A stretch of DNA of 12,244 nucleotides from the IMG/VR virus record IMGVR_UViG_3300027312_000135; one strand, 5' to 3'. The first letter of the stretch is position 1. Each line of letters begins with the position of its first letter. This stretch comes from a virus. Its lineage: Duplodnaviria; Heunggongvirae; Uroviricota; Caudoviricetes. Below the pieces are notes generated by a model. The model saw only the letters and a list, made by a program, of their open reading frames with translations, was not told where the DNA came from and did not search any database. Shown here one piece after another: positions 9,356 through 9,943 of the stretch. Both the position numbers and the translations under genes were made by a program.

Positions 9356-9943
9356 CTACGTTTCATAAAATTCAATCTTTTCAATATCTTTAGAGAGAAT
9401 AAGCACGCCCTGAGTCTTATCTTTGACGCTATCAAAACCACCGTCGCTATTAATGTGCCAACTTTGCTCTAAATAGAGTTGCTCTGGTTCAGGAGCGCTG
9501 GAAGCAAAAGAGTCACTACCATAATACCCGCCTATAGTCTTTCCGTCTTTTAAAGTAACAACGACCCAAGCCGTTTTACGCAATCCAAAATAATAATCCC
9601 AAGATCTTCCTGTTGGGTGTGGTAATAAGTTCTTTATCCATGGCAAAACTCTGGCCTTAGAGAAAATAAGCGCCAATAGAATAGGGCTTATTATCAAAAC
9701 AATCATATAAAAACAAAAGTAAATGAACGGGTGAGAAAACTTAAAGCCCAGCCCTTCAAAATAATATATTGGAATAAACCAAATCGCGTGATTGATGCAA
9801 CTGTAAGATACAACTTCTACTATCGCTTTTGAAGTATCTATTTGTACTGTAGGATGAAAAACATTATATGCTTTCATGCTTAGAAAGCCAGGAACGACAA
9901 AAAGGATAAAAATAAATAACTTACTACTATTCCAGATATCCAT
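9356..9943 (-). CDS. Membrane protein (about 3 TM helices in the N-terminal half, soluble C-terminal domain), function unknown
   Basis: Track ORF. Hydrophobic segments KLFIFILFVVPGFL, AIWFIPIYYF and FIYFCFYMIVLIISPILLALIF, then a roughly 95 aa hydrophilic C-terminus. AT-rich codon usage unlike the flanking phage genes. First gene of an operon that continues into the three peptide genes. Confidence 0.7.
   Translation of the reverse strand: MDIWNSSKLFIFILFVVPGFLSMKAYNVFHPTVQIDTSKAIVEVVSYSCINHAIWFIPIYYFEGLGFKFSHPFIYFCFYMIVLIISPILLALIFSKARVLPWIKNLLPHPTGRSWDYYFGLRKTAWVVVTLKDGKTIGGYYGSDSFASSAPEPEQLYLEQSWHINSDGGFDSVKDKTQGVLILSKDIEKIEFYET

Follow-up and report, generated by a model that had tools for sequence, protein, structure and literature searches.

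The DUF6338 membrane protein of a lambdoid prophage belongs to a mobile cassette with small proline-rich partner peptides

A gene for a membrane protein of the family DUF6338 lies on the minus strand of the window, i.e. the whole stretch of 12,244 nucleotides analysed here (IMG/VR record IMGVR_UViG_3300027312_000135), and is followed by three genes for small proline-rich peptides. Peptides of this type are a real, conserved and almost obligate partner of DUF6338, and the cassette formed by the two was shown to move horizontally on mobile elements. As judged by sequence covariation across the family, the C-terminal tail of the peptide and a predicted Sm-like domain of the membrane protein are co-adapted.

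The window covers the part of a lambdoid prophage that encodes immunity and early functions, and a metagenome contig identical to it continues into an integrase gene and then into chromosomal genes. At the nucleotide level, known phages match the window only over short stretches, most closely Erwinia phage vB_EhrS_49 (82% over cII) and E. coli phages (~77% over the O gene). Between recT and the next plus-strand gene, the cassette lies in an island that has a GC content of 35–39% as compared with 55–61% in the surrounding sequence and was found in none of 5,426 complete E. coli genomes. Its orientation is antisense to the flanking exo/recT...dam/xis genes. The window cassette is an antisense, self-terminated moron inside the lambdoid early-left operon, and the relevant features are as follows.

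Window, minus strand: cro-like, cII, ParB-like, O-like and P-like replication genes.
Window, plus strand: cI-like repressor gene, followed by the early-left operon.
7078–7899, plus strand: PDDEXK exonuclease gene (exo) of the early-left operon.
7896–8798, plus strand: RecT gene of the early-left operon.
After the RecT gene in the early-left operon, plus strand: genes for a DksA-like zinc finger protein, Dam and an excisionase-like HTH protein (xis).
8828–8861, minus strand: strong intrinsic terminator, called at 8861–8838, with a 10-bp GC-rich stem, a 4-nt loop and a T-run, directly after the last peptide stop codon.
8864–9016, minus strand: partner peptide 3, 50 aa, two GYQP motifs and one GYKP, tail PAPPPKKP, ATG start at 9016.
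9034–9177, minus strand: partner peptide 2, 47 aa, GYQP and GYKP, tail PVPPPKKP, with AGGTAGGA upstream.
9192–9335, minus strand: partner peptide 1, 47 aa, GYQP and GYIP, tail PAPPPKKP, with a GGAG Shine-Dalgarno sequence 7 nt upstream.
9356–9943, minus strand: DUF6338 membrane protein gene, first of the cassette, ATG start, 195 aa (Pfam PF19865).
9359–9625, minus strand: residues 107–195 of this protein, the PHP...WD linker and a predicted Sm/LSm-like beta-barrel, holding residues 128, 167, 174, 175 and 178.
9653–9943, minus strand: residues 1–97, the membrane part with three predicted helices (AlphaFold2, hydropathy and charge).
9944–10000, minus strand: putative promoter and 5' leader, with a perfect TTGACA at 10000–9995 and a 17-nt spacer.

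The genes for DUF6338 and peptides 1, 2 and 3 are separated by gaps of 20, 14 and 17 nt; ahead of those for peptides 1 and 2, a Shine-Dalgarno sequence is recognisable. For peptide 3, an alternative TTG start at 9022 would give the 52-aa version described in an earlier note on this DNA; the 50-aa gene is the one called on the identical contig L002. The putative -10 element of the promoter is weak and TG-extended (TGcTCTTTT), and a consensus scan called no sigma-70 promoter on the minus strand of the window. The TTGACA and TTTTGCTCTTTTAA blocks upstream of the cassette are retained in the nearest relative, the locus L160, and an equivalent hairpin follows the third peptide gene there.

The DUF6338 protein of L160 is 81% identical to that of the window, and all three peptides are kept in the same order and frame. 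Peptide 1 differs from its L160 orthologue by 18 synonymous and 11 non-synonymous codon changes, and peptide 2 from its orthologue by 17 and 20, respectively. Synonymous changes are thus frequent between the two arrays, which indicates purifying selection; judged on these sequences, conservation of the peptide array in L160 is far beyond chance. The orthologue of peptide 3 is present but uncalled in L160. Partner peptide genes are often uncalled or only partly called, as is the third peptide in L001 and L160 and peptides in many RefSeq records, and hence gene callers underestimate the peptide copy number. A difference in copy number among the identical contigs L001–L003 was considered and rejected, as only the gene calling differs.

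The 195-aa protein matches Pfam DUF6338 (PF19865) over residues 5–194 with an E-value of 1.3e-34 and a score of 120.1 bits (cut-off 26.5). At E≤0.1, the Pfam search returned nothing else, including no LSM or Hfq match. No match to PHROGs, PADLOC or NCBIfam was found for either the protein or the peptides, including none to the PADLOC-DB v2 defence HMMs at E≤0.1, and a search of PDB sequences with the DUF6338 family profile gave no match at E≤10. Database homologues (n=138) are 40–65% identical across very distant hosts, and an exhaustive profile search collected 2,579 clusters (50% identity, E≤1e-3). In an alignment of 39 homologues M1 and the N-terminal MDIW are invariant, hence the start of the 195-aa ORF is secure. 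All family-invariant residues of this alignment, i.e. M1, PGF 18–20, PHP 108–110, WD 115–116, F146, P151 and W162, are present in the window protein, and a further conserved motif, SFASSxPxPEQxYL, occupies positions 145–158.

The AlphaFold2 model of the window protein (mean pLDDT 80.5) has long helices at residues 6–29, 37–64 and 72–97, short helices at 101–106 and 114–120, and an eight-stranded beta domain at 125–194. Helices 1 and 3 are strongly hydrophobic on the Kyte-Doolittle scale, and helix 2 is amphipathic with invariant polar residues. The segment after helix 3 contains five K/R and one D/E, a charge bias from which the C-terminal domain is most likely cytoplasmic. This domain has an Sm fold in the model, and the proteins that match it best in structure all belong to the RNA-binding Sm, LSm and Hfq group; its identity to Sm proteins is 9–23%. 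Neither a match to the MS_channel HMM nor a full-length structural match to an MscS-like channel, which likewise would combine three transmembrane helices with a beta domain, was obtained. Model and hydropathy bear out the description in the earlier note of three N-terminal helices and a soluble C-terminal domain. Likewise confirmed is its placing of the gene as the first of a minus-strand island operon with three peptide genes downstream, and DUF6338 is a non-housekeeping family.

Partner peptides were defined as ORFs of 25–85 aa that start within ~30 nt of the stop codon of DUF6338 or of the preceding peptide, contain 1–4 G[YFHW]xP motifs and have exactly three residues past the last PP. The window peptides conform to this definition, with two or three motifs each and the tail PPPKKP in all three. 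Of 80 genome loci taken, 79 were usable, and 72 of these have a small downstream ORF that starts -28 to +30 nt from the DUF6338 stop codon, contains G[YFH]xP motifs and is rich in proline at its end; the background in control windows was 39/2478 (1.6%). Viral contigs (57), metagenome contigs (41) and records of plasmids and phages were then added; of the 185 pooled loci, at least 169 carry 1–4 peptides immediately 3' of DUF6338, and only 3–4 truly lack one. The co-occurrence with the peptides that the earlier note had proposed to check is therefore evident throughout the family. Conversely, all four sampled matches to the peptides lie directly 3' of a DUF6338 gene, which in one of the four loci is intact and had been missed by the annotator.

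The peptide-bearing loci span more than 10 bacterial phyla and one archaeal (Methanosarcinales) MAG. The hosts include Gamma-, Beta- and Alphaproteobacteria, as well as Desulfobacterota, Campylobacterota, Nitrospirota, Chloroflexota, Planctomycetota, Bacteroidales, Synergistaceae and Sumerlaeota. Even distant DUF6338 proteins (25–31% identity), such as those of Mesorhizobium and Rhodococcus, are followed by a proline-rich, K-tailed ORF.

A profile built from 30 peptides retrieved 448 proteins, all of 45–73 aa and devoid of Pfam domains, which are annotated as 'hypothetical' at best. The consensus is M-x-(D/E)-K-K ... (D/E)GYQP ... (K/R)GYQP ... GGYQP-x-x-S ... P-P-x-x-x. Members have a median length of 53 aa, 2–3 GYQP motifs, 18% proline and only 10.7% hydrophobic residues (LIVFMWC), and of 141 distinct peptides 136 end exactly three residues past the last PP. 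Stop codons of the peptide genes are TAA (88), TGA (38) and TAG (34). One peptide per locus is the norm, and arrays of 2–4 recur mainly on prophage contigs; the triplication mentioned in the earlier note is thus not the defining feature.

Peptides of this type have been detected once before. In P. stutzeri, digest-free mass spectrometry revealed three novel proline-rich proteins of less than 50 aa with up to 100% coverage, 44–114 PSMs and the ends PPPPKK(GG), and a predicted operon ('operon 9') pairs them with the DUF6338 gene Pstu14405_RS12030 (PMC10433244). In non-membrane cell extracts, the peptides were abundant at full length and without modification (PMC10433244). Operon 9 resembles the window in family, gene order and the presence of three 3' proline-rich peptides of less than 50 aa with PPPPKK(GG) ends; its peptides differ in the loss of the GYQP motifs. 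The authors regarded the peptides as species-specific and unconserved beyond P. stutzeri, assigned them no function and raised an antimicrobial role (PMC10433244). The species-specificity is contradicted by the 72 of 79 genome loci against the 1.6% background. Added here to that report are a partner common to the family across phyla, a defined architecture and covariation with the protein. In the literature searched, PMC10433244 is the single paper that mentions DUF6338, and searches for PPPKKP, GYQP and PF19865 gave SARS-CoV-2 spike matches or nothing.

The three residues past the last PP (x1, x2 and x3) fall into basic (KKP, KKK, KKR, KNP) and acidic (GDE, DEE, GAE, KEE) tail classes. Covariation was scanned between each of the 195 DUF6338 columns and the three tail positions in 124 non-identical pairs. 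The tail class follows mostly one clade split (4 Fitch changes), and a simple clade effect was addressed by replacing the raw correlation with phylogenetically independent contrasts; these were counted on a neighbour-joining tree and are formally uncorrected for the 585 column-by-position tests. The leading pairs, with contrasts given as compensating : same-sign, are as follows.

x1 and residue 178: contrasts 8:1.
x2 and residue 167: basic tail with acidic residue in 76/81, acidic tail with basic residue in 17/25; contrasts 11:0 (3 unchanged).
x2 and residue 175: contrasts 9:0.
x3 and residue 128: acidic tail with basic residue in 31/31; contrasts 5:0.
x3 and residue 174: neutral tail (mostly P) with basic residue in 62/65; contrasts 6:1.

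All top signals lie in the Sm-like domain and all are charge-compensating, x2 with residue 167 being the best of the 195 columns, and the same-sign excess does not exceed 5 in any column-by-position combination. The pair in the window obeys the rule, as its KKP tails face D167, V128 and K174. A Logan contig encodes a protein of 259 aa (P0116) in which DUF6338 is naturally fused in frame to a GYQP/PPPKKP peptide; only one contig holds this fusion, hence loss of the stop codon by a sequencing error is possible. In its AlphaFold2 model, pLDDT is ~70 in the last ~9 residues as compared with ~43 in the linker.

The compensating covariation together with the one natural fusion argues for direct binding, and we infer that the peptide tail binds the Sm-like domain. 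Docking of the free PPxxx-COOH end on the loops at ~165–178 would fit the fixed register from the C-terminus, the fusion and the pLDDT of its end. Direct binding, to which the compensatory changes point, would suit the suggestion of the earlier note that the membrane protein is an effector with modulators. Covariation signifies co-adaptation and is silent on the direction of regulation; recognition of a cargo by an exporter would give the same signal.

The explanation proposed, which has about an even chance of being correct, is a mobile two-component cassette in which the peptide tail docks on the Sm-like barrel of DUF6338 and gates a membrane effector. DUF6338 would sit in the inner membrane, its Sm-like barrel following the three N-terminal helices and lying in the cytoplasm; the other half of the system would be at least one small peptide, disordered and cytoplasmic, whose gene lies immediately 3'. 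The peptide end PP-x1x2x3-COOH probably docks electrostatically near residues 128, 167 and 174–178, as the charge-compensating pairs strongly suggest. The invariant GYQP repeats may engage the PHP...WD and SFASSxPxPEQ surfaces, possibly across the subunits of an Sm-type ring. The moron in the window would use its own promoter and terminator, would be expressed apart from the early-left operon, and would presumably be expressed in the lysogen. A labile peptide ligand may gate the membrane effector through its amount or its occupancy, and such a module, whether of toxin-antitoxin-like, abortive-infection or exclusion type, could benefit the carrier element. Extra peptide copies would then be dosage or specificity variants. 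Such logic of an effector plus a modulator is plausible, and the high constitutive peptide levels in P. stutzeri would fit an antitoxin as well as other roles. Against it count the absence of PADLOC, PHROG and NCBIfam matches, the scarcity of the family in sequenced phages, the ordinary share of defence genes among its neighbours and the uncalled sigma-70 promoter.

A broader and rather improbable version of this model places the cassette in a new and phylogenetically very broad class of mobile-element conflict systems, spanning Bacteria and Archaea, with a ring-forming Sm-like effector and an EF-P-dependent peptide that serves as a sensor of translation integrity. A short-lived polyproline-tailed peptide would hold the ring-forming membrane effector inactive; on shutdown or hijacking of translation by a phage, the peptide would disappear and the effector would fire, leading to abortive infection or exclusion.

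The main rival of the gated-effector model is that the peptides are an exported product, such as a bacteriocin, a PrAMP-like peptide or a signal, with DUF6338 dedicated to their export or to immunity against them and with the tail marking them for export or recognition. Tandem diversified copies with a constant tail do resemble precursor arrays, K-class peptides are cationic (+4 to +7 in the window) with 18% proline, and the partner is a membrane protein; the antimicrobial role raised for P. stutzeri and the tail-domain covariation expected of exporter-cargo recognition would also agree with it. Nevertheless, the peptides have no signal, leader or hydrophobic segment, no ATPase or other energising partner accompanies them, and the co-varying domain is predicted to be cytoplasmic. 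About one quarter of the peptides are acidic-tailed and lack the cationic character of PrAMPs. PrAMPs are Arg/Pro-rich with PRP motifs, whereas the peptides of the window are Lys-based and contain no PRP repeats. The abundance of full-length unmodified peptides in non-membrane extracts (PMC10433244) likewise speaks against export, and this explanation is considered unlikely.

In a second rival, the membrane-tethered Sm-like domain binds host or invader RNA, and the peptides compete with or tune this binding, giving an RNA-sensing or RNA-sequestering device. The structural matches listed above are all to RNA-binding proteins, and Sm rings could account for the three repeated GYQP motifs per peptide. 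However, the domain has no Pfam LSM match and no recognisable Sm1/Sm2 motifs, its identity to Sm proteins is low, its most conserved surfaces (PHP...WD and SFASSxPxPEQ) have no Sm counterpart, and the Sm-like fold serves protein-peptide binding too; direct action on RNA is thus quite unlikely. The DUF6338 domain further differs from Sm, LSm and Hfq in being fused to three membrane helices and in having invariant motifs of its own, and their ligand is RNA, whereas the co-evolving ligand of DUF6338 is a peptide C-terminus. In its predicted mode of binding, DUF6338 may be likened to SH3 and PDZ domains, as a small beta-barrel would read a PPII-type PxxPxK-like tail by charge complementarity in a fixed register from the free C-terminus; this is a likeness of mechanism and not homology.

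The small ORFs could also be cis-acting translational devices, in which PPP or PPG three codons before the stop stalls ribosomes and the products are irrelevant. The motifs PPP, PPG, PPD and PPE are strong EF-P-dependent stall motifs (e.g. Peil 2013, Starosta 2014), and in every peptide gene the distance from a di- or tri-prolyl motif to the stop codon is constant. Yet nothing is left for the ORFs to regulate, as DUF6338 lies 5' of them and a terminator 3'; stop-codon use is unbiased, the peptides accumulate as stable products in P. stutzeri (PMC10433244), and the GYQP repeats and amino-acid-level covariation would go unexplained. A purely cis-acting role is therefore very unlikely.

A strict SieB-type superinfection-exclusion protein, i.e. 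a homologue or positional analogue of lambda/P22 SieB, which causes late abortive infection of superinfecting phages (PMC10883804), would likewise be a ~190-aa membrane protein in the lambdoid early-left region, but the DUF6338 gene is antisense to that operon, has no SieB match in Pfam or PHROGs, and its cassette is also known from plasmids, Tn7 cargo, further sites in prophages and chromosomal islands of non-phage type, across many phyla and the archaeal MAG, which makes this reading highly improbable. Membership of the SieB family itself was rejected on the Pfam (E≤0.1, only DUF6338) and PHROG (0) results. Of the earlier interpretation, the co-operonic membrane protein on a moron-like island stands; the likeness to SieB has no support from homology.

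SieB and Rex may still serve as useful functional analogies. Lambda/P22 SieB with its antidote Esc and lambda RexAB are prophage inner-membrane proteins that abort superinfection, each together with a modulating polypeptide, and this logic is of the kind proposed for the DUF6338 cassette. They share no sequence or fold similarity with DUF6338, differ from it in position and strand, and, unlike them, DUF6338 cassettes are found mostly outside lambdoid phages. The V. cholerae integron system Sucellos, a transmembrane pore with a partner, is RexAB-like and unrelated to DUF6338. Toxin-antitoxin modules with the toxin gene first (higBA, hicAB) and Abi systems with a membrane toxin resemble the cassette in being compact, two-gene and translationally coupled and in their carriage on plasmids, prophages and defence islands; adjacency, translational coupling and mobile-element carriage are all seen in DUF6338 cassettes. 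The cassette differs from them in the absence of a DNA-binding antitoxin domain, in having 1–4 peptide copies and in matching no toxin-antitoxin or defence HMM. The cassette thus matches no known kind of system.

As far as the searched literature shows, the peptide partner common to the family, the architecture, the Sm-like fold and the binding model have not been described; DUF6338 was previously catalogued only as a DUF, and the operon was noticed in one species in one paper. A DUF and a supposedly species-specific proteomics curiosity thus become a defined two-component module. This compact cassette bears no relation to characterised systems and ranges over more than 10 bacterial phyla and one archaeal MAG. 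Its membrane protein is of unusual design, with an Sm-like domain anchored in the membrane, and its peptides form an unannotated family comprising at least 448 clusters. According to proteomics, members of this family are abundantly expressed in P. stutzeri, and the peptide genes are routinely missed by annotation pipelines. The alignments offer a specific candidate binding model, PPxxx-COOH against residues 128, 167 and 174–178.

The horizontal movement of the cassette is apparent from its carriers. In a Klebsiella lambdoid prophage it occupies another position, where it is also antisense, and it is further carried by the phage-plasmid pJN2-26 and, with two peptides, by a 10-kb MOBQ mobilisable Acinetobacter plasmid. 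In the Proteus penneri plasmid pPp47 (L086, coordinates 4283 to 8221), Tn7-like cargo holds the cassette, with the order on one strand being TnsE, DUF6338, a 59-aa peptide with a PPGEE tail, a TIR-domain protein and a caspase-family protein. At integrase-proximal prophage ends the cassette lies beside SNF2 and TIR genes. In L153/L154 (coordinates 164 to 8159), it is located within a type I R-M operon, hsdM-hsdS-[DUF6338-peptide]-BroN-Fic-hsdR, and the intact DUF6338 gene at 3400–3981 is absent from the original annotation. DUF6338 is rare both among sequenced phages (1 of 50,697 records) and among plasmids (20 of 72,556).

The nearest neighbours (~115 per side) include SNF2 (9), integrase (6), ThsB-TIR (4), TIR_2 (2), AbiEii (2) and OLD/AAA_15 (2), and further neighbours include nSTAND3, KAP and methylases among many unrelated genes. 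Recognisable defence genes make up ~15–20% of the immediate neighbours, a proportion typical of any accessory island. The mobile-element and defence-island context is compatible with exclusion or abortive infection, and given its recurrence on prophages, plasmids and Tn7 cargo and in R-M, TIR and retron neighbourhoods, the cassette could credibly represent a new mechanism of defence, exclusion or addiction.

In three marine metagenome contigs (L150–L152, ~2134–4165), a 412-aa retron-type reverse transcriptase (PADLOC RT_VI, E 5e-68) is encoded on the same strand and ends 12–30 nt 5' of DUF6338, which is followed by a peptide; there, DUF6338 and the peptide may be a retron effector. In a Mesorhizobium mediterraneum plasmid (L158, coordinates 1079 to 3270), nucleotidyltransferase and SLATT genes lie directly 5' of a distant DUF6338 (31% identity), and the downstream peptide is divergent (GFQP...PPSGGSSGGKK). 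Nearly identical cassettes with PPGAE tails were found on very short contigs of Vibrio and Photobacterium (L048, L049, L057 and L072), which would fit integron-cassette or repeat-flanked locations.

Two other ORFs of the window deserve mention. The 220-aa ORF at 10243–10905 (plus strand) shares the low-GC island, in divergent orientation to the cassette. Pfam, PADLOC and NCBIfam gave no match to it, and in PHROGs only two families without known function matched, both marginally (E 0.006 and 0.017). The ORF was rejected as a member of the cassette, as it occurs only on three contigs identical to the window, and is hence probably an independent moron. The cI-like repressor ORF at 4166–4909 (plus strand) is listed with a TTG start that gives a hydrophobic-looking 40-aa leader overlapping the cro-like gene, and the true start is probably an internal ATG (MNKTLAERL...).
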